Of a stretch of 26,571 bases of DNA, positions 3,265-26,571 are shown one piece after another. Source of the stretch: an uncultured Candidatus Saccharibacteria bacterium (GTDB lineage Bacteria; Patescibacteriota; Minisyncoccia; Minisyncoccales; CAZUDS01); assembly GCA_964619425.1 (NCBI GenBank), contig CAZUDS010000001.1, positions 1-26,571 of the forward strand, given 5' to 3'. The position numbers and the translations under genes are program-made. The notes under the pieces are model-generated. The model ran no database searches. It was not told the origin of the DNA and saw only the letters and a program-made list of their open reading frames with translations. Each line of letters begins with the position of its first letter. Positions within the stretch are counted from its first letter, which is position 1.

Positions 3265-3345
3265 ACCCCGTTAGAAAGTTGTTTTTCAAGTCCGTAGAAA
3301 TGATGTCTGTTTAGTTGATGGGCAATGCGGGCTTTCTAACGGGGT
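3265..3345. repeat. CCCCGTTA-family palindromic element, copy 3
   Basis: accccgttagaaag (3265-3278) and ctttctaacggggt (3332-3345) form a perfect 14-bp IR with a 53-bp loop; abuts the stop codon at 3346. Confidence 0.9.
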
Positions 3346-4290
3346 TTATGGTAACCTTTCTATTAAACTAAAAAATTCAAATTTCTTTAAAATTTGAGTG
3401 GCTTTTTCTTTTTTATAATTTTCCCATTGGCATTCTTTTAAGTTAAAATCCAAAGGCACATTTTTGTGTATCTCGGCTAAATCCCTGCTGAAAAAGGCCT
3501 GCTCTTTGTATTCTTCGAGCTTCACTCGAAGACGCTGATTTACGCTGATTAGCACTGCCTTCGGCAGTGGCCGCTGATTTGATGCTGAATATAAGCTTTC
3601 TAAGCTACCGAATTCTTTAATTAATTTAATGGCGGTCTTCTCCCCTATCCCGGGCACACCAGGAATATTATCTGAAGGGTCGCCCTTTAAGGCCTTGAAG
3701 TCAACTAATTGCTCGGGGTTTAAGCCATATCTTTTTTTAACTGCCTCTTCATCATACAAAACAGTATCTTTTAGTCCTTTTTTAAAAGTATAGACCTTGG
3801 TGTTTTCATCAATTAATTGAAGGGTATCTAAGTCGCCGCTAAGAATAATATTTTCCACTAGAGAATAAGCTTGTCCCGCGCCAGAGATTTCGTTTTGGCG
3901 CAAGGCAGATCTTTTAACCGACTCTTTACTCAAGGTGCCAATAAGGTCATCGGCTTCGTATCCCTCTTTTTCAAAAACAGCAACATTAAATGCCTTTAAT
4001 ATCTCTTTTACCTTTGGAATTTGTTGGACTAATCCCTCCGGGGTTTTGGGTCTTTTTGCCTTATATTCTTTAAATTTTTGATGGCGAAAAGTAGGCGCTG
4101 GCAAATCAAAGCAAGCAGCTATAAAATCTGGCTTTAGTTCTCTGATGGCCTTAAAAAAAACCAATAAAAATCCATAAGCGGCATTGACCAATTCCCCTTT
4201 CTTGGTAGTCAAGGGAGGCAGAGCATGATAGGCCCGATGAATTAAAGCATTGCTGTCAATAATAATAAGCCGTTTTTTTTCTTTAGTCAT
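3346..4290 (-). CDS. 5'-3' exonuclease / flap endonuclease (PolA N-terminal domain, without the polymerase domain)
   Basis: IIDSNALIHRAYHA, CFD, GYEADDLIGTL, SGDLD, KGDPSDNIPGVPGIGEKTA (H3TH); ends at 314 aa. Confidence 0.92.
   Translation of the reverse strand: MTKEKKRLIIIDSNALIHRAYHALPPLTTKKGELVNAAYGFLLVFFKAIRELKPDFIAACFDLPAPTFRHQKFKEYKAKRPKTPEGLVQQIPKVKEILKAFNVAVFEKEGYEADDLIGTLSKESVKRSALRQNEISGAGQAYSLVENIILSGDLDTLQLIDENTKVYTFKKGLKDTVLYDEEAVKKRYGLNPEQLVDFKALKGDPSDNIPGVPGIGEKTAIKLIKEFGSLESLYSASNQRPLPKAVLISVNQRLRVKLEEYKEQAFFSRDLAEIHKNVPLDFNLKECQWENYKKEKATQILKKFEFFSLIERLP
3532..3590. repeat. CGCTGAT decamer repeat arm with internal hairpin, inserted in frame in the exonuclease gene
   Basis: acgctgattt acgctgatta - cactgcc ttc ggcagtg hairpin - ccgctgattt gatgctgaat; encodes SASNQRPLPKAVLISVNQR. 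Confidence 0.8.
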
Positions 4291-4413: not shown

Positions 4414-5124
4414 TTATTCTAGGGCGAGATCGGGAAACTTTTTGATTTTTCCTTTATATTGTATCCAATAATCCACAAATTTCTTCCAATCTTTTGGTTC
4501 CATTATCTTTAAAAGAAAATCTCTATCCGTGACTGAGGGAAAATTCTTTTTGCCAATATAGTCAGGATAACTTGACCATTTATAGTTTTCTAGAAATTCA
4601 ATAACTTTCTCTGGCTTTGTTATTTCTTCTTCTTTCCAGTTTGGCTCTACAAGGGCCACAGGATTAGTATGAATATATACAAAGACCGTTTTTAGCTGTT
4701 CATCATTTTTAATGTGAATAGCGCCAAATCTGCTTTGAAAAACATGTCCCATGCGATTATATTTTTTATTTAAATAACCTCCGTAGCCAGCACCCAGTTT
4801 CTGCATAAATTTTGAAATTCCCCCTTCTTTTATTTGTTTTAATAATAAATGAATATGATTCGGCATAAAACAAAAGGTCAAAATTTCCACCAACTTATCC
4901 CTTTTATCAACAACAGGAATCAAACCCTTGCTGGATTTTTTGAAACGGGCACGGGCCTCTCTCCGTTCTCTTATAGTAATTAGTCTTGTGGTATTGAACT
5001 CGTAGATAGAAAAAATCCCTCTGTAGTAATCATTAATGTCTTTGAAAACCAAATTCTCATCAATCCCCCTCAAGACAACATGATAAATTTCATCATTAAC
5101 AAATTGTTGGCGTCTATAAGGCAT
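4414..5124 (-). mobile_element. REP-associated tyrosine (HUH/Y1) transposase, RAYT / IS200-like
   Basis: IYHVVLRG, HUH motif FMPNHIHLLL, GHVFQSRF, catalytic Tyr region YIHTNP, YKWSSY; ATG start at 5124 preferred over TTG at 5139; flanked by palindromes. Confidence 0.92.
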
Positions 5125-5144
5125 AACTAGAATCCCCAAGCCCC

Positions 5145-6888: not shown

Positions 6889-6898
6889 AAATAATATA

Positions 6899-6937
6899 AT
6901 GCGAATGATGCGAATGGTATTCGAATGCTGCGAATAG
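6899..6937. repeat. GCGAAT repeat arm downstream of the GxxExxY gene
   Basis: atgcgaatg atgcgaatg gtattcgaatg ctgcgaatag; abuts the stop codon at 6938-6940. Confidence 0.88.
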
Positions 6938-7339
6938 CTATTTTATATCTCGGTTTAGAACTCTTTTAGGGTAAAGATATTTTTGACGAAAATTAACAAT
7001 TAAACCTAATTTTTTATTACAAGAGACAAGGTACCGACGTAACTGAAAATAATCATCTTTTGCTATAAAGGGTTTTGCCTTTATCTCTAAAACAATTCTA
7101 TCGTCAATAATAAAATCGGGAATATTTCTTTCTTCTTTTTCTCCCTTAAAAGAAGGAGGTAATGCTTTTTCACGTACATATCCTATCTTATTTTCTTTTA
7201 ATAATTCCTCTATCGCGTCAGCATATTGCCTCTCGTTTCTATATCTCCCTAATTTATTATGAACATAAAAACAGAGACCACAAGTTTTATAAGATAATTC
7301 GGGATGGACTATATTGTTTTTTATTCGCAGCATTCGCAT
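6938..7339 (-). CDS. GxxExxY family protein (PD-(D/E)XK nuclease-like)
   Basis: LGRYRNERQY, PDFIIDDRIVLEIKA, QLRRYL, LGLIVNF. Confidence 0.92.
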   Translation of the reverse strand: MRMLRIKNNIVHPELSYKTCGLCFYVHNKLGRYRNERQYADAIEELLKENKIGYVREKALPPSFKGEKEERNIPDFIIDDRIVLEIKAKPFIAKDDYFQLRRYLVSCNKKLGLIVNFRQKYLYPKRVLNRDIK

Positions 7340-7344
7340 TTCAT
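7322..7344. repeat. ATTCGC repeat arm upstream of, and overlapping the start of, the GxxExxY gene
   Basis: tattcgcagcattcg (7322-7336) is the exact reverse complement of cgaatgctgcgaata (6922-6936). Confidence 0.85.
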
Positions 7345-7357
7345 TTGTAGATTGGCA

Positions 7358-7564: not shown

Positions 7565-7585
7565 AGATACATTATAGCTTATTTT

Positions 7586-7687
7586 GCCCCGTTACTCATA
7601 ATTATTGTAGATAGATTCAAACTATTTGCCCTATTACATTATAAATCTCTGTAATTGTCCAGTAGCTGGATTTATGAGTAACGGGGC
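7586..7687. repeat. CCCCGTTA-family palindromic element, copy 4
   Basis: gccccgttactcataa (7586-7601) and ttatgagtaacggggc (7672-7687) form a perfect 16-bp IR with a 70-bp loop. Confidence 0.9.
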
Positions 7688-7752
7688 TTTATATAAACCA
7701 AAAACACCGCTTGGTCTGGTGGTGCTTTTGGAATGATTTCGGAGCAAAACGT

Positions 7753-7788
7753 CTGCCCCGCTGCTCATAATTATAAGTAACGAGGCAG
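7753..7788. repeat. CCCCGTTA-family element, copy 5 (loop-less, degenerate sister of copy 4)
   Basis: ctgccccgctgctcataa|ttataagtaacgaggcag; 4 mismatches in 18 bp, 3 of them G-T wobbles on the minus strand. Confidence 0.75.
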
Positions 7789-7812
7789 TGACCGGATTTA
7801 TAGATAACAGGT

Positions 7813-9477: not shown

Positions 9478-9557
9478 AGCTTATTTGTAGGAATTAGACG
9501 CGTTGTTTACAGTTCTTTAGAAGGAAAATTCTAAGTTCTAAACGAATCCCAACAATA

Positions 9558-9708
9558 AAATCCCAAATCCCAAATTCCAAATCACAAATAAATTCCAATG
9601 ACCGAAATCCCAATGACCGAAACAGAATTGTTTATAAAGAAGGTTTTGGTCATTTGGTCATTGGAATTTGGATATTGTTTGTTATTTGGTGCTTGGTGCT
9701 TGGAATTT
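9558..9708. repeat. 'Empty' CCAAAT/ATTTGG heptamer inverted-arm element (same family as the four-helix-bundle flanks)
   Basis: Left arm aaatccc aaatccc aaattcc aaatcac...caatgaccgaaac (9558-9623), 19-bp spacer, right arm gttttggtcatttggtcattg...ggtgcttggaattt (9643-9708). Confidence 0.92.
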
Positions 9709-9892
9709 AAAGAAATAAAAAGTGTAAACAACGCTCGGAATTCTTACAACTTATTATATTATTGTTTTTATAAAACTATCTCGACCTTTGTTTGTGACGC
9801 TGATGCGCCTCTTATTATTTTATCACAAAAACAAAATTCTCTAAAGCCAAATCAACGGGGTTTACCCAAAAATTGGAGGGCTTGTCTTTTAA

Positions 9893-12379: not shown

Positions 12380-14290
12380 ATGAGAAAAGAAAAAAAGAGG
12401 GGAAATAAAACTATAATAACCTTAAAACTTCTCGGTTTCTGCTTGCTGCTTTTGTTTTTCGGTTGTTTGTTCTTATTTGTCTATTACGCCAAGGACCTGC
12501 CAAGACCAGAAAGGTTTACGGAAAGAGAGTTTTTCCAGACAAGCAAAATTTATGATCGAACGGGCGAAATCCTTTTATACGAACTCTATGGCGAAGAAAG
12601 AAGAACAATAGTTGCCTTAGAAGAAATGCCTGATTTCCTCCAAAAAGCAGTGATAGTAGCCGAAGACGCCAATTTCTATGAACATTTTGGCCTTGACTGG
12701 AGAGGCATCTTACGTTCTGTTATCTTAAACTTAAGAGAAGGCGAGCTTTTGTTTGGCGGCTCAACAATTTCCCAACAACTAATTCGCTCCTCTTTTTTAA
12801 CCAGAGAAAGAACCTTCAGGAGAAAAATTAGGGAAGTGATTTTAACTTTAGAATTAGAAAGGCGTTATTCTAAAGAACAAATCTTGGAGTGGTATCTGAA
12901 CCAGGTTCCTTTTGGCTCAAATACTTATGGCGTAGAGGCAGCCAGCCAAACCTTTTTTGGAAAGCCGGTTTCAGAAATTTCCTTAGCAGAAGCAGCCCTC
13001 TTGGCTTCTTTAATTAGAGCTCCCAGCCGCCTCTCCCCTTATGGCGAACAAAAAGCAGAACTCTTGGCAAGAAAAGATCGTATCTTAGGAAGATTGGCTA
13101 AAAAGGAATATGTTACAGAAGAAGAGGCAGAAAAGGCAAAAAAGGAAGAATTGGTTTTTCAGAAAATTCTTAATCCTATTAGAGCTCCTCACTTCACTCT
13201 CCACGTCAAACAACTTTTAGAAAGAGAATACGGCCGAGAGTTTCTTCAAGAAAGGGGGTTAAAAATTTACACCACCTTGGACTGGGAACTTCAACAAGTG
13301 GCTGAAAAATTGGTTAAAGAAAAAGGAAAGCAAAACGAGCGATTAAGGGCTTTTAATGCTGCTTTAGTTGCTCTTGACCCCAGAAATGGAGAAACCCTGG
13401 CTATGGTTGGTTCAAGAGATTGGTTCGCAGGGTCTTATCCTAAAAATTGTCTTCCTGGAAGAAATTGCCTTTTTGACCCCAAAGTCAATGTTGCCGTTTC
13501 CCTGCCCGGCAGACAACCGGGCTCAGCCTTTAAGCCCTTTGTTTATGCTAAGGCCTTTGCAAGGGGCTATACTGATAAAACTATAGTTATGGATGAAAAA
13601 ACCAATTTTGGCATCTGGGGAGGAGAATCCTATATCCCCCGGAACTTTGACAATAGATTTCGCGGCCCGGTCACCTTAAGACAAGCCCTGGCTCAGTCCC
13701 TTAACGTGCCTTCAGTCAAGGTCTTAGCCCATTTGGCTGGGCTGGAAGAGAGCATAAAAATAGCCAAGGAAATGGGAATTACTACTCTAAATAAACCGGG
13801 CTCTTTTTATGGCTTGGCTTTGGTTTTGGGCGGAGGAGAGGTAAGATTAATAGATATGGTTTCGGCTTATGGCGTTTTTGCTAATAACGGCAAGAGGACA
13901 GAGCCCCAGGTTATCTTAAAAATTAGAGATGACAGGGGCAATATTATTAAAGAAAATCAGGCAACGACTAAAAGGGTCCTATCTTCAAATGTCGCTCGGT
14001 TGGTTTCCGATATCTTGTCTGATAACGCAGCTAGGTCTCCAATGTTTGGCATTAATTCGCCTCTTTACATTAAAGAATTTCCGGTCTCGGTAAAAACCGG
14101 AACCACTGGAAATTTCAGAGATGCTTGGGCAATTGGTTATACTTCCTCTTTAGCGGTCGGCGTTTGGATTGGCAACAGCGACAACTCTCCGACGCTTGGA
14201 GCGGGTGTTGGACTGGCCGCTCCTCTTTGGCGTGAATTTTTTATCAAGGCCTCTGCGAAACATCTTCCTGAAGCCCTTACAAAACCTTAA
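12380..14290 (+). CDS. Class A penicillin-binding protein (PBP1A family; GT51 transglycosylase + transpeptidase)
   Basis: EDANFYEHFGLD, GGSTISQQL, RKIRE, KEQILEWYLN; SxxK (SAFK), SxN (SLN), KTGT; N-terminal TM anchor. Confidence 0.95.
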   Translation: MRKEKKRGNKTIITLKLLGFCLLLLFFGCLFLFVYYAKDLPRPERFTEREFFQTSKIYDRTGEILLYELYGEERRTIVALEEMPDFLQKAVIVAEDANFYEHFGLDWRGILRSVILNLREGELLFGGSTISQQLIRSSFLTRERTFRRKIREVILTLELERRYSKEQILEWYLNQVPFGSNTYGVEAASQTFFGKPVSEISLAEAALLASLIRAPSRLSPYGEQKAELLARKDRILGRLAKKEYVTEEEAEKAKKEELVFQKILNPIRAPHFTLHVKQLLEREYGREFLQERGLKIYTTLDWELQQVAEKLVKEKGKQNERLRAFNAALVALDPRNGETLAMVGSRDWFAGSYPKNCLPGRNCLFDPKVNVAVSLPGRQPGSAFKPFVYAKAFARGYTDKTIVMDEKTNFGIWGGESYIPRNFDNRFRGPVTLRQALAQSLNVPSVKVLAHLAGLEESIKIAKEMGITTLNKPGSFYGLALVLGGGEVRLIDMVSAYGVFANNGKRTEPQVILKIRDDRGNIIKENQATTKRVLSSNVARLVSDILSDNAARSPMFGINSPLYIKEFPVSVKTGTTGNFRDAWAIGYTSSLAVGVWIGNSDNSPTLGAGVGLAAPLWREFFIKASAKHLPEALTKP

Positions 14291-14305: not shown

Positions 14306-14366
14306 ATGTTCAGATCCCGGCTTCGAACATTGGTTTTAGCAGTGTTCAGATCCCGGCTTCGAACAT
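14306..14366. repeat. Pair of ATGTTCAGATCCCGGCTTCGAACAT REP-like repeats
   Basis: Copies at 14306-14330 and 14342-14366 (24 of 25 bp identical), between convergent genes. Confidence 0.92.
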
Positions 14367-14656
14367 TCAAGGTAAATAATTTTCTTTAGGGCAGATGTTT
14401 TCAGGGATTTATTTATCCTTTTTTTGGTTTCCTCTTCTTTAAGACGAAGTTTCTGGGACAAAATCGGACTGCTAACCTTTACCTCAAGAATGCCTGCCCT
14501 AAAATGTAGTGGCTGGGCGTTTTTTATATTCTCTCGTCTCAGGATATCCTTTACTTCTTGCTTCCAGGACTGACAAATCCTCAATCCCAAAATTTCCTGC
14601 CAGAAGCCATATTGTCTTACTCTTTTTTCTAAAATTGTCTTAAAAGGGAAAAACAA
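14336..14656 (-). CDS. DUF721 / DciA-like helicase-loader protein
   Basis: W...NAQPLHFRAGILEVKVSSPILSQKLRL...INKSL pattern; directly downstream of dnaN; start (TTG) uncertain; last residues CSKPGSEHC are encoded by the REP. Confidence 0.75.
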   Translation of the reverse strand: MFFPFKTILEKRVRQYGFWQEILGLRICQSWKQEVKDILRRENIKNAQPLHFRAGILEVKVSSPILSQKLRLKEEETKKRINKSLKTSALKKIIYLECSKPGSEHC

Positions 14657-16267: not shown

Positions 16268-17611
16268 TTAATTAAATATTCTTTGTCTTATTAAGCTAAT
16301 TTCTTCGGTTAGGTTTTCGTTTTTTCTCATCTCTCTTTCAATTTTCTTTTTAGCGTAAATAATAGTGGTATGATCTTTATCTTTGAATTTTCTGGCAATT
16401 AAAGGATAAGAACACTTTAGATCCTCTCTTAGTAGATACATAGCAATTTGCCTAGGCCTAACAATTTCTTGCTTTCTTGAGGGGCTTAACACTTCCCTTT
16501 CTTTAAGATCGTAAAATTCGGCCACCACCTGGAGAACTTTCTTAAAATTAGCCACTTTTTTAGGACCGATAACTGTTTTTTTAAGAATGTCTTGGGTCTC
16601 TGTTAATGTTAGCGGGCCGTTTTTCATTTTTTGGCAGACGGCTAATTGATTAACCGCTCCTTCTAACTCTCTAATATTATTTTTAATATTAACCGCAATG
16701 AACTCTAAAATTTCGTCAGAAAGAGAAATGTTTTTTTCTTTAATTTTGATTCCTAAAATAGCCATTCTGGTTTCCAAGTCAGGCGTGCCGATATTGGTCG
16801 TCATACCCCCTCCAAACCGCGAAATCAACCTTTCTTCTAAAACAGAGATGGCTCTCGGCGGCTTATCAGAGGAAAGAACAATCTGTTTATTTCTTTCATA
16901 TAAAACATTAAAGACATGAAAAAATTCTTCCTGGGTTTTTTCTTTGCCAGCCAAGAATTGGACATCGTCAACAATTAGAAAATCTATTTCCCTGTATTTT
17001 ATCTTAAAACTCTCAAGGCCCTGATTTTTAATGGCCGCTACCATATCCGAAGTAAACTTTTCTGATGTTATGTATTTTATTTTTTTGTTGGGGAATTTCT
17101 TTCTATTTTGATTGCCAATTGCTTGCAAGAGATGGGTTTTGCCTAATCCGACACCGCCGTAAATAAATAAAGGGTTATAGGTTAGACCCTGTTTGTCAGA
17201 GACGCACCAGGCAGCAGCATGGGCTAATTCGTTAAAAGAGCCCACGACAAAATTTTCAAACTGATACCTTGGGTTAAGCCCGGACTGCTTTTCAATCGCA
17301 AACTCTCGGAGGTCAAGCTGGGGAGTTTTTTTTAGCGGCAAAAAAGCCCTTTCCTTAATTGTTGGGCCGGCGCTGATAATATATTTTATTTCTTTAATTT
17401 CTGGCGACAATTTATGAAGAGCCCCCAACAAGATTTTATGATATTTATTTTTTAGCCATTCTTTGGAAAAATTATTTGGGACTGAAACAATCATCTGACC
17501 ATCTTTAATATCTGAAATTTTGGTGTTCTTAAACCAAGTAGAAAAGTTGGCTTGGCTAATTTGGAATTGAATTTGGGCTAAAATAGATTGCCACAGTTCT
17601 TTTCCGTCCAT
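16268..17611 (-). CDS. dnaA: Chromosomal replication initiator DnaA
   Basis: WQSILAQI...FSTWF, FENFVVG, YNPLFIYGGVGLGKTHLLQAIG, LIVDDVQF, RELEGA, RPRQIAMYL, DHTT. Confidence 0.98.
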   Translation of the reverse strand: MDGKELWQSILAQIQFQISQANFSTWFKNTKISDIKDGQMIVSVPNNFSKEWLKNKYHKILLGALHKLSPEIKEIKYIISAGPTIKERAFLPLKKTPQLDLREFAIEKQSGLNPRYQFENFVVGSFNELAHAAAWCVSDKQGLTYNPLFIYGGVGLGKTHLLQAIGNQNRKKFPNKKIKYITSEKFTSDMVAAIKNQGLESFKIKYREIDFLIVDDVQFLAGKEKTQEEFFHVFNVLYERNKQIVLSSDKPPRAISVLEERLISRFGGGMTTNIGTPDLETRMAILGIKIKEKNISLSDEILEFIAVNIKNNIRELEGAVNQLAVCQKMKNGPLTLTETQDILKKTVIGPKKVANFKKVLQVVAEFYDLKEREVLSPSRKQEIVRPRQIAMYLLREDLKCSYPLIARKFKDKDHTTIIYAKKKIEREMRKNENLTEEISLIRQRIFN

Positions 17612-25458: not shown

Positions 25459-25859
25459 GATGAGTGTTTTAATTCTAAATAAATTAATATTGTCCACCAG
25501 GTAAAACTTTCAAAAACAAGAACAGGAATAAACTCAAAAATAACAAGAAGCGGTCTGAGCCATCTCATTTTTTTTGCCCACTTCATCGCCCCAACCAACC
25601 TCTTTCCTGTTTTGGCTGGAACCCTTACGGCCCCAGATCTAAAAAGCATCCAAGCGCCAAAAAACAGAAGAGCGAAGATGTCAATGACAAATGAAATTGC
25701 TAGACCAACTACTGGAATCAAGTCAAAGAAAAATTCTGCCACATCAACAGAAACAGCTGTCGTCATCATAAGTACTCCTTCCGGGCTCCATAAAGCGTTA
25801 ATGCCGCTAATATGCTCCTGCCTGGCGCCTTCCTTTTCTATTGTAGCTGTTTCGGTCAT
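25455..25859 (-). CDS. Small multi-pass membrane protein heading the pilin array
   Basis: Hydrophobic segments with DLIPVVG and EFIPVLVFESFTWWT; translationally coupled to pilin C. Confidence 0.75.
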   Translation of the reverse strand: MTETATIEKEGARQEHISGINALWSPEGVLMMTTAVSVDVAEFFFDLIPVVGLAISFVIDIFALLFFGAWMLFRSGAVRVPAKTGKRLVGAMKWAKKMRWLRPLLVIFEFIPVLVFESFTWWTILIYLELKHSS

Positions 25860-25999
25860 AACGTGTCAAACCATTTAACTATTATAACTGCTTTGGTCAG
25901 ATATTTGATAGATTGACGCATTAAGTCATCTAAAATGTAAGTGAAATGGTATTGTTGGGTCATCTAAAAATACTTTGGGTGTCGCATGTTCAACTTTTT

Positions 26000-26065
26000 A
26001 AATTCCAAATTCCAAGCACCAAATTCCAAATAAATTTCAATATTCAATGACCAAATGACCAAAAC
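26000..26065. repeat. CCAAAT heptamer arm downstream of the four-helix-bundle gene
   Basis: aaattcc aaattcc aagcacc aaattcc...caatgaccaaatgaccaaaac; abuts the stop at 26066; its reverse complement shares 21 exact bp with 9643-9663. Confidence 0.92.
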
Positions 26066-26428
26066 TTATTTAGATTTTTCTATTATTGAAGAAAATATCT
26101 TTTTTAATTCTATTGCCTCTTTTAGAAGTTCTTCGCCTTCTTTTTTGAATTTCTCCTCATCGGTCTCAATTATTAGTCTCAACCAATGAACCGATTCTTT
26201 TGCTTCTTTCCTACATATTTTTATTCTCATTCTAAAGTCCTTTTTGCTAAATGACTCGTTAGCTTCGATGTAATTCGCTCCCACTGAACCCGATGATCTA
26301 ATTACTTGCCTCACATATTCAATGTTACTAATAGTTCTAGACAATTTCTTGCAGAAAAGAGCAACTTTCTTTGCAAATTGGTAGGTTCTTTCTTCTAAAT
26401 CGTATTTATTTCTCGTTGTTTCGGTCAT
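26066..26428 (-). CDS. Four-helix-bundle protein (23S rRNA IVP / bAvd-like family)
   Basis: YDLEERTYQFA, RQVIRSSGSVGANYIEA, SKKDFRMRIKICRKEAKESVHWL, ELLKEAIELKKIFSSI. Confidence 0.95.
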   Translation of the reverse strand: MTETTRNKYDLEERTYQFAKKVALFCKKLSRTISNIEYVRQVIRSSGSVGANYIEANESFSKKDFRMRIKICRKEAKESVHWLRLIIETDEEKFKKEGEELLKEAIELKKIFSSIIEKSK

Positions 26429-26558
26429 TGGAATTTGGTTATTGAATATTATTTGGTATTTGGTGCTTGGTGCTTGGAATTTCTTGTTTCAAAATTTCGG
26501 TCATTGGAATTTGGTTATTGAATATTATTTGGAATTTGGTATTTGGTGCTTGGAATTT
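26418..26558. repeat. Duplicated ATTTGG heptamer arms upstream of the four-helix-bundle gene
   Basis: Arms at 26418-26482 and 26495-26558 share an exact 38-mer (26419-26456 = 26495-26532); the first arm contains the gene's ATG. Confidence 0.92.
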
Positions 26559-26571
26559 GTTTAAAGTTTCG

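Follow-up and report, generated by a model that had tools for sequence, protein, structure and literature searches.

A four-helix-bundle gene enclosed by inverted heptamer arrays: a discrete cassette whose design is common to relatives in more than ten phyla

Introduction

What kind of element encloses a small gene so closely that its start codon lies inside one inverted repeat and its stop codon abuts the other? The question is raised by the right-hand end of a contig of an uncultured Candidatus Saccharibacteria bacterium (GenBank assembly GCA_964619425.1, contig CAZUDS010000001.1, positions 1 to 26,571; this whole stretch of 26,571 nt is called the window below), where a gene for a four-helix-bundle protein is framed in this way and where the upstream arm is present in tandem. 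An earlier note, made from the letters of the DNA alone, took the locus for the actively amplifying end of a cassette whose product might act on its own arms. We find that gene and arms form a discrete unit, and that its design is common to relatives in more than 10 phyla and is more general than that note supposed. The explanation that we favour, with a confidence that is about evenly balanced, is that the cassette is a compact, multi-copy and horizontally spread form of the S23p-type intervening sequence (IVS), free-standing in that it lies outside ribosomal RNA (rRNA), and read through within operons.

The structure of the cassette

The cassette is a unit of ~485 bp at window positions 25999-26482, with one four-helix-bundle gene between inverted arms of ~60 nt. 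Its parts are as follows.

25997-26065, minus strand: 3′ arm (in the sense of the gene), a G/T-rich array of degenerate heptamers, recognized from its inverted-repeat pairs and lag-7 autocorrelation; outer end at 25999/26000
26066-26428, minus strand: gene whose product is a 120-aa four-helix-bundle protein, PF05635 / TIGR02436 (S23p / IVS-protein / Avd-like fold)
26429-26485, minus strand: 5′ arm copy A, an A/C-rich heptamer array up to the start codon; outer end of the cassette at about 26482

Read in the sense of the gene, the order is 5′ arm AAATTCCAAGCACC...CCAAATTCCA, ATGACCGAAAC, the open reading frame (ORF), TAA, and 3′ arm GTTTTGGTCAT...GGAATTTGGAATTT. The start codon (26426-26428) and the first codons lie inside the 5′ arm, of which ATGACCGAAAC is the inner end, while the inner end of the 3′ arm, GTTTTGGTCAT, abuts the stop codon at 26066-26068. 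Positions 26000-26054 pair with 26428-26482, giving 55 nt at 80% complementarity, or 65 nt at 75%. Each arm is built as an array of degenerate heptamers, the autocorrelation at lag 7 being 0.55 in the 3′ arm and 0.64 in the 5′ arm, and the unit TTGGTCA is present. The Smith-Waterman inverted-repeat score of the flanks is 39, compared with a maximum of 15-18 for control flanks. When a 501-nt RNA of the cassette is folded, a closing stem forms between 9-74 and 425-491 (ΔG = -125.5, z = -8.4), and none of 100 shuffled sequences equals it. The description of inverted CCAAAT/ATTTGG arms that frame the gene is thus borne out by the pairing of the arms, by the ATG within the 5′ arm and by the 3′ arm that directly follows the stop.

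A scan of the arms for sigma-70-type promoters gave no promoter-like site, and an Rfam scan gave no family matching the arms and no rRNA anywhere in the window. An integron gene cassette was considered and excluded; the halves of the palindrome flank the ORF, where an integron cassette would have a single attC 3′ of it, and there is no integrase in the window.

The closest precedent for the cassette is the S23p-type IVS, found in 23S rRNA (and in CPR bacteria, those of the candidate phyla radiation, in 16S rRNA too) and known from Leptospira and Coxiella burnetii. It carries an ORF of the same family, PF05635, in the loop of a closing stem formed by complementary termini, as is present in the cassette too, and its size of ~430-490 nt is similar. 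It also has tandem heptamers directly before the start codon, in variable number (PMC4990558); in Coxiella the stem is a 28-bp terminal inverted repeat cut by RNase III, and 2-3 heptamers, their number varying with the strain, stand before the S23p ORF (PMC4990558). Internal deletions of the ORF and ORF-less forms occur in these sequences as they do in the cassette family, and horizontal transfer has been inferred for them (PMC4990558; 10.1101/2024.02.27.582315). The cassette differs in lying outside rRNA genes between protein-coding flanks, in having arms of ~60 nt (against 28 bp) that consist wholly of heptamer arrays on both sides, and in having its start codon within the stem; its excision by RNase III is putative.

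Conservation of the arms in the family

How general is this arrangement? The protein family is large, a search giving 5,668 clusters at 50% identity (E ≤ 1e-3). Relatives with 58-82% amino acid identity are labelled as Patescibacteria groups, Bacteroidota, Planctomycetota, Desulfobacterota, Nitrospiraceae, Chloroflexota, Verrucomicrobia, Armatimonadota, Calditrichota, Cloacimonadota, Aminicenantes, WOR-3 and others, making more than 10 phyla in all. At 69 of 74 loci (93%) the inverted flanks score above every control flank (median 26 versus 10, control maximum 15), which disposes of the suggestion that most members of the family might lack arms. These are alignment scores set against flank controls; duplex free energy was dropped as the statistic because GC-richer distant flanks score equally well by composition.

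The arms belong together in pairs. Each matches its own partner better than it matches the partners from other loci (p = 4e-4), and the flavours of the arms covary across the two sides as CCAA/TTGG, ACAA/TTGT, CTAA/TTAG and CGAA/TTCG (Fisher test, p = 7e-6 for CTAA/TTAG and 5e-4 for CGAA/TTCG). Flavours were defined by 4-mers in place of k-mers of the form NAAAT, which are confounded by the common AAATAAATT and ATGACCGAAAT. Over 75 loci both arms have autocorrelation peaks at lags 7, 14 and 21. The motif AAATAAATT occurs in 58 of 75 5′ arms, in 28 of them at exactly -12, and its reverse complement occurs in 56 of 75 3′ arms, 26-34 nt after the stop. The offset between the two arises because the arm runs into the first ~9 codons; indeed, across 77 loci nucleotides 1-27 of the coding sequence pair with what follows the stop codon (p = 3e-7). 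A reading of AAATAAATT at -12 as the mark of a leaderless mRNA was not adopted, as the spacing of the hexamer does not fit.

The arrangement extends to distant relatives (33-39% amino acid identity) on plasmids of cultured cyanobacteria and of a Bacteroidota strain, the genera being Nostoc, Aulosira, Dolichospermum, Planktothrix, Euhalothece and Bernardetia. Cultured carriers of the family include Nostoc flagelliforme CCNUN1 (pNFSY05 34170-34535), Aulosira laxa NIES-50 (plasmid2 3293-3658), Planktothrix agardhii No.66 (p1 13309-13668) and Bacteroides thetaiotaomicron (BT_0352). There the inverted heptamer arrays are perfect and their heptamers unrelated in sequence, in the same inverted layout, and six of eight score at least 30. 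Examples are (AATTCAA)4-5 / (TTGAATT)4-5, (TAATTCG)4 / (CGAATTA)4, (CGTAAAT)4 / ATTTACG units, CAGTTAC.. / (CACTGGT)13 and (GATTAGT)12 / ACTAATC. Since these arrays differ in sequence while keeping the layout, it is the period and the complementarity that are conserved, and not the sequence.

Short tandemly repeated repetitive (STRR) heptanucleotide arrays of cyanobacteria were reportedly described, by Mazel et al. in 1990, without an associated gene. They resemble the cassette in being tandem heptamers in intergenic DNA, and TTGGTCA and the arrays of the cyanobacterial four-helix-bundle genes look STRR-type; STRR arrays may be linked to cassettes of this kind.

The arms also leave a trace in gene annotation. 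Since the 5′ arm is free of stops, gene callers often carry the ORF upstream through it, as in P0002, a 160-residue call (positions 1590-2072 of the metagenome contig L001) for a protein identical to the 120-residue product of the window. Many family representatives of 140-186 residues match only from residue 30-60, and their low-complexity N-termini (NSKFQAPSTKYQ...) are translated arm.

Orientation and expression signals

At 59 of 62 loci the upstream neighbour points the same way as the four-helix-bundle gene, and at 64 of 68 the downstream neighbour does (p ~1e-6 against a baseline of 0.7); for gene-less arm pairs, described below, co-orientation is only 69%. A Shine-Dalgarno-like 4-mer precedes the gene at only 6 of 75 loci, and A makes up 49% of the 5′ arm and G 10%. 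In the host genome of the window the Shine-Dalgarno sequence is hardly used (1 of 14 genes checked). The strong co-orientation, together with the lack of expression signals of its own, suggests that the cassette is a passenger expressed by read-through.

Genes of the family turn up in CRISPR-cas, DISARM/restriction-modification and housekeeping operons. Three distant members on plasmids of Anabaena cylindrica, Pseudanabaena galeata and Planktothrix agardhii (L218, L225 and L220) occupy positions between cas2 and cas1, beside cas1, and with DISARM drmD on one side and an MmeI-type restriction-modification gene on the other; the occurrence of the family inside cas loci has been reported earlier (PMC3936711). 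Such placements may reflect insertion of a passenger rather than a role in defence.

Copies of the cassette and gene-less derivatives

Is the cassette a discrete unit? The metagenome contig L001, from a metagenome that also holds the window locus, encodes an identical protein in cassette DNA that is ~99% identical (pS = 0.029, pN = 0). The block shared with the window runs exactly from outer arm end to outer arm end, and the flanks of L001, with small genes and a TPR gene, are unrelated to those of the window. Cross-phylum blastn alignments stop at window positions 25999/26000 and 26477-26483. In community reads the arm words have 10-20x the depth of the flanks, and in the unitigs many different flanks join at 25996-26005 (depth 438 versus 22). 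A check for carriage by phages found no relatives in viral contigs.

The window contains a second member of the arm family, in this case without a gene.

9540-9710, plus strand: gene-less arm pair of the same arm family, with a CCAAAT-type arm, ATGACCGAAA twice, a 19-nt loop and a GTTTTGGTCATTTGGTCATTG... arm

Its fold has ΔG = -76.1 (z = -7.8), its 3′ arm agrees with that of the cassette at every one of the first 21 nt, and its 88-nt core unitig has a depth of 148 compared with 25, some 6x the flanks, which makes it multi-copy. It is nested in a perfect 12-bp inverted repeat, GCGTTGTTTACA (9500-9511) / TGTAAACAACGC (9723-9734), so that we are looking either at one hairpin repeat in the loop of another or at a composite element. 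The outer segments GCGTTGTTTACA and TGTAAACAACGC are themselves 10-30x over-represented in community reads.

Gene-less forms are common. The 17-mer AATTCCAATGACCGAAA is found exactly in more than 120 metagenome contigs, and among the 69 hits that could be evaluated 42 have the two arms but no gene, the loop measuring 5-175 nt, and one has a full gene. In several others (L122, L129, L090) the ORF is internally deleted, with N- and C-terminal codons fused and the arms intact; gene-less pairs thus derive from the longer, gene-bearing form, since deletion intermediates exist. Eight dispersed composite gene-less copies have ~300 nt in common and differ in their distal flanks, and they vary in heptamer number, with one, two or three units of CAAATTA. 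A search for other cargo behind AATTCCAATGACCGAAA yielded only four-helix-bundle genes, deletion remnants or nothing; GNAT and other ORFs were chance matches without arms. Small GC-rich hairpins (for example CCTCACCCTTCCCCTCTCCCC...GGGGAGAGGGGAAGGGTGAGG and ACCCGCCTTAGGCGGGT) are seen inside the loops or arms of A/T-rich pairs at seven of the metagenome loci with AATTCCAATGACCGAAA (L093, L144, L146, L108, L115, L140 and L138), and we interpret them as nested insertions of a second tiny palindromic repeat because otherwise matching copies exist without them.

[quoted passage not shown] In the intergenic region 7585-7790 of the window a REP-like palindrome of 16-21 nt (GCCCCGTTACTCATAA / TTATGAGTAACGGGGC) is present four or more times, in both orientations, and 2.5 kb away, at 4414-5139 on the minus strand, is a gene resembling Y1_Tnp / REP-associated tyrosine transposases (44.6 bits to Pfam; 45 bits to NCBIfam, below its cut-off of 80).

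These observations raise an alternative, in which the arms act in DNA as the terminal inverted repeats (TIRs) of a small transposable element with MITE-like gene-less derivatives, and the RNA stem is a by-product. Movement could come from a host or co-resident enzyme acting in trans, such as a hairpin-handling HUH/Y1 transposase, or might be helped by the element's own cargo. The sharp ends, the 99%-identical copies in different contexts, the depth of the arm words and the many flanks that join at the arm end all fit such an element, as do the excess of gene-less over gene-bearing forms (42 versus 1-3) among the 69 AATTCCAATGACCGAAA hits, the ORFs deleted within intact arms and the eight composite copies with their differing distal flanks. 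The absence of a G•U bias in the arms, described below, and the Y1-like gene also speak for it. Other features fit poorly. The two copies whose bounds are precise show no target-site duplication, and in ~150 surveyed loci no transposase is linked to the cassette, whose gene-bearing form encodes the four-helix-bundle protein only and no known transposase. The 95% co-orientation with neighbours would be unexpected for an element with symmetric TIRs, and the cassette is kept at orthologous sites whose flanks are 65-85% identical (L007/L064, L006/L011, L028/L031 and L069/L071). The arms are repeat arrays and not the unique TIRs of a MITE, and conservation across the family of period and complementarity without sequence is unlike the recognition site of a single transposase. 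The match of the Y1-like gene is weak, and a different palindrome, that at 7585-7790, is nearer to it. On balance we think TIR-driven movement unlikely, while noting that it concerns mobility and is not fully exclusive of an RNA-level role for the arms.

The duplicated 5′ arm

Is the second upstream arm real? The segment 26419-26485 recurs as a direct copy at 26495-26561, with a period of 76 nt and 63 of 67 positions identical. Further features are found beyond copy A.

26486-26494, minus strand: spacer of 9 nt between the two arm units, TTTTGAAAC in the sense of the gene, covered by a unitig of run X1
26495-26561, minus strand: 5′ arm unit copy B (arm plus ATGACCGAAAT), with a B-specific unitig (26503-26571, depth 17.2) that runs 63 nt further
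26562-26571, minus strand: spacer-like TTTAAACA that follows CGAAAC and keeps the phase of the 76-nt unit; it may end a diverged third unit

The two copies share an exact 38-mer (26419-26456) that includes ATGACCGAAA, which is thus present in each, and they differ at four of 67 positions, being ~6% diverged outside the 38-mer. The 38 exact base pairs and the potential start in each copy had been remarked on before, and both hold; the upstream ATG, in copy B (26502-26504), is out of frame with the gene and opens an upstream ORF of 21 codons (26439-26504).

In run X1 a 98-nt unitig (26427-26524) spans arm A, the spacer and arm B with no differences. Its depth is 24.9 compared with 22.4 in the flank, corresponding to a single copy, while the shared 38-mer has a depth of 44.5, or about two copies. 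Because a unitig without differences crosses the junction at the depth of the flank, with the 38-mer at about twice that depth, we conclude that the tandem arrangement is real. Run X2 is less simple. Its junction is thin (5.6) and one contig joins the start of the ORF straight to arm B, which hints at a subpopulation with a single arm; Logan unitigs, however, are built with a k of 31, which the 38-mer exceeds, so that some paths are ambiguous.

It might nevertheless be supposed that the tandem arm is an artefact of assembly and that the arms are chance low-complexity sequence without biological meaning. The contig does end inside the repeat, four other assemblies found through the neighbouring gene all break inside the cassette, and the 38-mer exceeds the Logan k, as the X2 contig that passes directly to arm B illustrates. 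Yet the X1 unitig covers the unique spacer and both of its sides at single-copy depth, the 38-mer is at 2x, and the two copies differ at four positions. Nor would chance account for arms that exceed all controls in 69 of 74 relatives and covary, or for the z-score of -8.4 of the fold. This supposition is already largely refuted, and we regard it as very improbable indeed.

The earlier note had also suggested that the gtttcg at the end of the window might begin a third copy. Those letters do keep the phase of the 76-nt unit. A third copy that is exact can be excluded, because the X1 unitig continues unbroken for 63 nt past the end of the window and the depth of the 38-mer is 2x and not 3x; a diverged third unit beyond the end is possible. 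The B-specific unitig provides those 63 nt of extension to the right. No other assembly reaches there, and a look-up of the exact cassette protein for sequence to the right gave no match.

The term 'actively amplifying' overstates the case. Two copies can be verified, they have already diverged, and a duplicated junction of arm and start is found at one of 78 surveyed loci, the present one. To explain the extra arm no more is needed than ordinary slippage or unequal exchange within an array of repeats; it is a modest local repeat expansion and not evidence of a mechanism of amplification.

A related cassette with different cargo

A second gene in the window has a similar setting.

6893-7345, minus strand: GxxExxY / PDDEXK_3 (TIGR04256) cassette with inverted arms of CGAAT-containing units; gene at 6938-7339

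Its ATG lies inside an arm (ATGCGAATGCTGCGAATAA), and the arm units are spaced by ~9 nt, giving a peak at lag 9 and not at 7. The layout is repeated in four other contexts (L206, L208, L211 and L214), that of L208 being between hydrogenase subunit genes. It looks like a sister type of cassette with cargo of nuclease fold, and that the unit length tracks the cargo, 7 nt with the four-helix bundle and ~9 nt with GxxExxY, hints at an interaction between cargo and arm.

The cargo protein

The product of the cassette scores 50.7 bits with PF05635 (23S_rRNA_IVP; cut-off 33.8) and 69.8 bits with TIGR02436 ('four helix bundle protein'; cut-off 24). An AlphaFold2 model of the monomer has four helices with a pLDDT of 91, residues 1-6 being disordered. 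Foldseek aligns it with 2RLD (BT_0352) at a TM of 0.78-0.87 and with 2GSC (Xcc0516) at ~0.8, and more weakly with Avd, a protein of diversity-generating retroelements (DGRs), at 0.68-0.78 (4DWL, 8UB7). A search of PDB with HMM profiles did not reach Avd from the cargo, the sequence relationship being too distant. The relationship to 23S rRNA intervening-sequence proteins and to bAvd that had been noted from the sequence is thus supported by the family matches and by the fold. Among close relatives dN/dS is 0.08-0.19, indicating purifying selection; between most pairs of relatives synonymous sites are saturated.

The family forms pentamers and binds nucleic acid. The structure 2RLD has five chains, and a pentamer has been described for Xcc0516 (Lin et al. 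2006, as cited in PMC4990558). Descriptions of the S23p family from rRNA intervening sequences go back to the 1990s (Ralph and McClelland 1993, as cited in PMC4990558), and its domain was still termed functionally uncharacterized in a 2024 study (10.1101/2024.02.27.582315). Unlike bAvd, the cassette is a stand-alone passenger in unrelated operons. No reverse transcriptase (RT) domain (RVT) was found in any ORF of at least 90 aa in the 26.5-kb window, in agreement with what had been said of it before, and no RT neighbour was seen at L001 or at the other loci examined.

The earlier note put forward the idea that the protein may act on its own arms. On this reading the arrays would be sites that the protein, presumably as a pentamer, reads in a 7-nt register, for autoregulation, for protection, or to recruit a polymerase or RT. 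In its favour, the protein has the fold of Avd, and Avd is seated on RNA in the DGR ribonucleoprotein (8UB7). Four-helix-bundle genes are accompanied by the 7-nt period regardless of heptamer sequence, GACAGAT of Coxiella included, whereas the GxxExxY cassettes have their ~9-nt units, and the arrays often have 4-6 units where the protein family forms pentamers. Set against this, the heptamers differ wholly between members of the family, so that recognition would have to be of shape or period; gene-less arm pairs persist in many copies; there is no RT in the window; and the Coxiella protein is reported as probably not made (PMC4990558). We consider the idea rather improbable.

Genomic context in the window

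Positions 1-20200 of the window are a chromosomal origin region, with rnpA, yidC and jag on the plus strand and the following genes opposite.

16268-17611, minus strand: dnaA
14710-15840, minus strand: dnaN
14336-14656, minus strand: DciA-domain gene

The window also holds a gene for a class A penicillin-binding protein (transglycosylase/transpeptidase). To judge by the PF18895 genes and the named relatives, the genome is probably that of a member of the Patescibacteria. The genes downstream of the cassette are PF18895 'T4SS_pilin'-like, with marginal matches of 25-30 bits, so that the statement that the cassette lies directly upstream of a pilin operon is right as to position and only approximate as to the identity of the operon. 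The cluster has a promoter-like site of its own.

25840-25869, minus strand: promoter-like site TTGACA-18-TACAAT, 11/12 to consensus, for the PF18895 cluster

The start box of the cassette, ATGACCGAAACA, recurs at 25848-25859, in the spacer of this promoter and 140 nt downstream of the cassette, where the chance expectation for a 12-mer match is ~0.003 in the window; a degenerate second box, CTGACCAAAGCAGTTATAAT, lies 41 nt upstream of it. The annotated start of the 134-aa neighbouring gene is this ATGACCGAAACA box, and its real start is more likely to be the ATGATG near 25770, which is preceded by a Shine-Dalgarno sequence.

Discussion

We can now return to the explanation favoured at the outset, that of a free-standing IVS of S23p type. 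The cassette would have neither promoter nor Shine-Dalgarno sequence of its own and would be transcribed by read-through, as a passenger in host operons. In the read-through RNA the arms would pair to form a stem of ~60 bp, a substrate for RNase III. Cleavage would part the passenger from the message of its host, and the product would be an A-rich mRNA, lacking a Shine-Dalgarno sequence, that could be translated in many hosts. The heptamer arrays would be hot spots for slippage and unequal exchange, and the extra 76-nt arm unit would be a local and perhaps polymorphic product of this.

An RNase III stem is to be expected from two precedents, the rRNA IVSs and the hairpin of the Haemophilus influenzae hmw genes. 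In the 5′ untranslated region of hmw the repeat (ATCTTTC)n forms a long hairpin that is processed by RNase III, and the cleavage sets the level of expression; change in the number of repeats requires the hairpin, transcription and RNase III (PMC12721329). The hmw case provides a precedent in function for the stem proposed here, with a transcribed heptamer array as one arm of a long hairpin, and for the instability of the repeat number. It differs in that the hairpin lies wholly within the 5′ untranslated region and encloses no gene, a G-rich region and not an inverted array serves as its right arm, and hmw is a host regulatory locus that is not dispersed; there is no homology.

Several results weigh against this explanation. 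If the arms were selected as RNA, an excess of G•U over A•C mismatches might be looked for on the RNA strand, and the numbers are 109 and 106; transitions make up only one third of the arm mismatches. Folding favours the sense strand over the antisense by a marginal difference only (43 versus 30 loci, p = 0.04). Within the subfamily of the cassette the sequence of the arms is itself strongly conserved, and the exact occurrence of AATTCCAATGACCGAAA in so many contigs fits sequence-specific recognition by a protein better than it fits pairing alone. We found no RNA sequencing runs containing the sequence of the window, and there is no RNase III gene in the window. As for horizontal spread, the sole sign of mobility is that copies exist in different contexts. 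No direct repeat was found outside the arms as a target-site duplication (in the two exactly bounded copies only, those of the window and L001), and all-against-all blastn of ~200 loci and look-ups of the proteins flanking the cassette in the window gave no empty site. With no excess of G•U and only a marginal advantage of the sense-strand fold, the arms may instead act in DNA, either as TIR-like ends or as protein-binding arrays.

A broader and distinctly more doubtful extension is that the four-helix-bundle and GxxExxY cassettes are both portable 'minigenes' without a transposase, whose repeat arms do three jobs. They would allow RNase III-dependent, Shine-Dalgarno-independent expression from any host operon; they would serve as slippage-prone tuning knobs; and they would provide portable homology, so that a gene-bearing copy could replace a gene-less pair by recombination, with the pentamer reading the 7-nt register. 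The rRNA IVSs, many gene-less A/T-rich hairpins and the cyanobacterial STRR arrays would then be footprints of a single system. In the papers searched, neither for PF05635 nor for GxxExxY did we find repeat-armed cassettes of a free-standing kind described, though this is no more than absence of evidence.

If all members of the family travel in palindromic cassettes with repeat arms, the rRNA IVS would be a special case of a more general passenger element. Many N-terminally extended gene calls like P0002 and many 'hypothetical' hairpin repeats would be simply explained, and the origin of heptamer arrays in cyanobacteria and elsewhere would become testable. The period of seven, the inverted arrays and the ATG within the arm would then provide a concrete handle for experiments.

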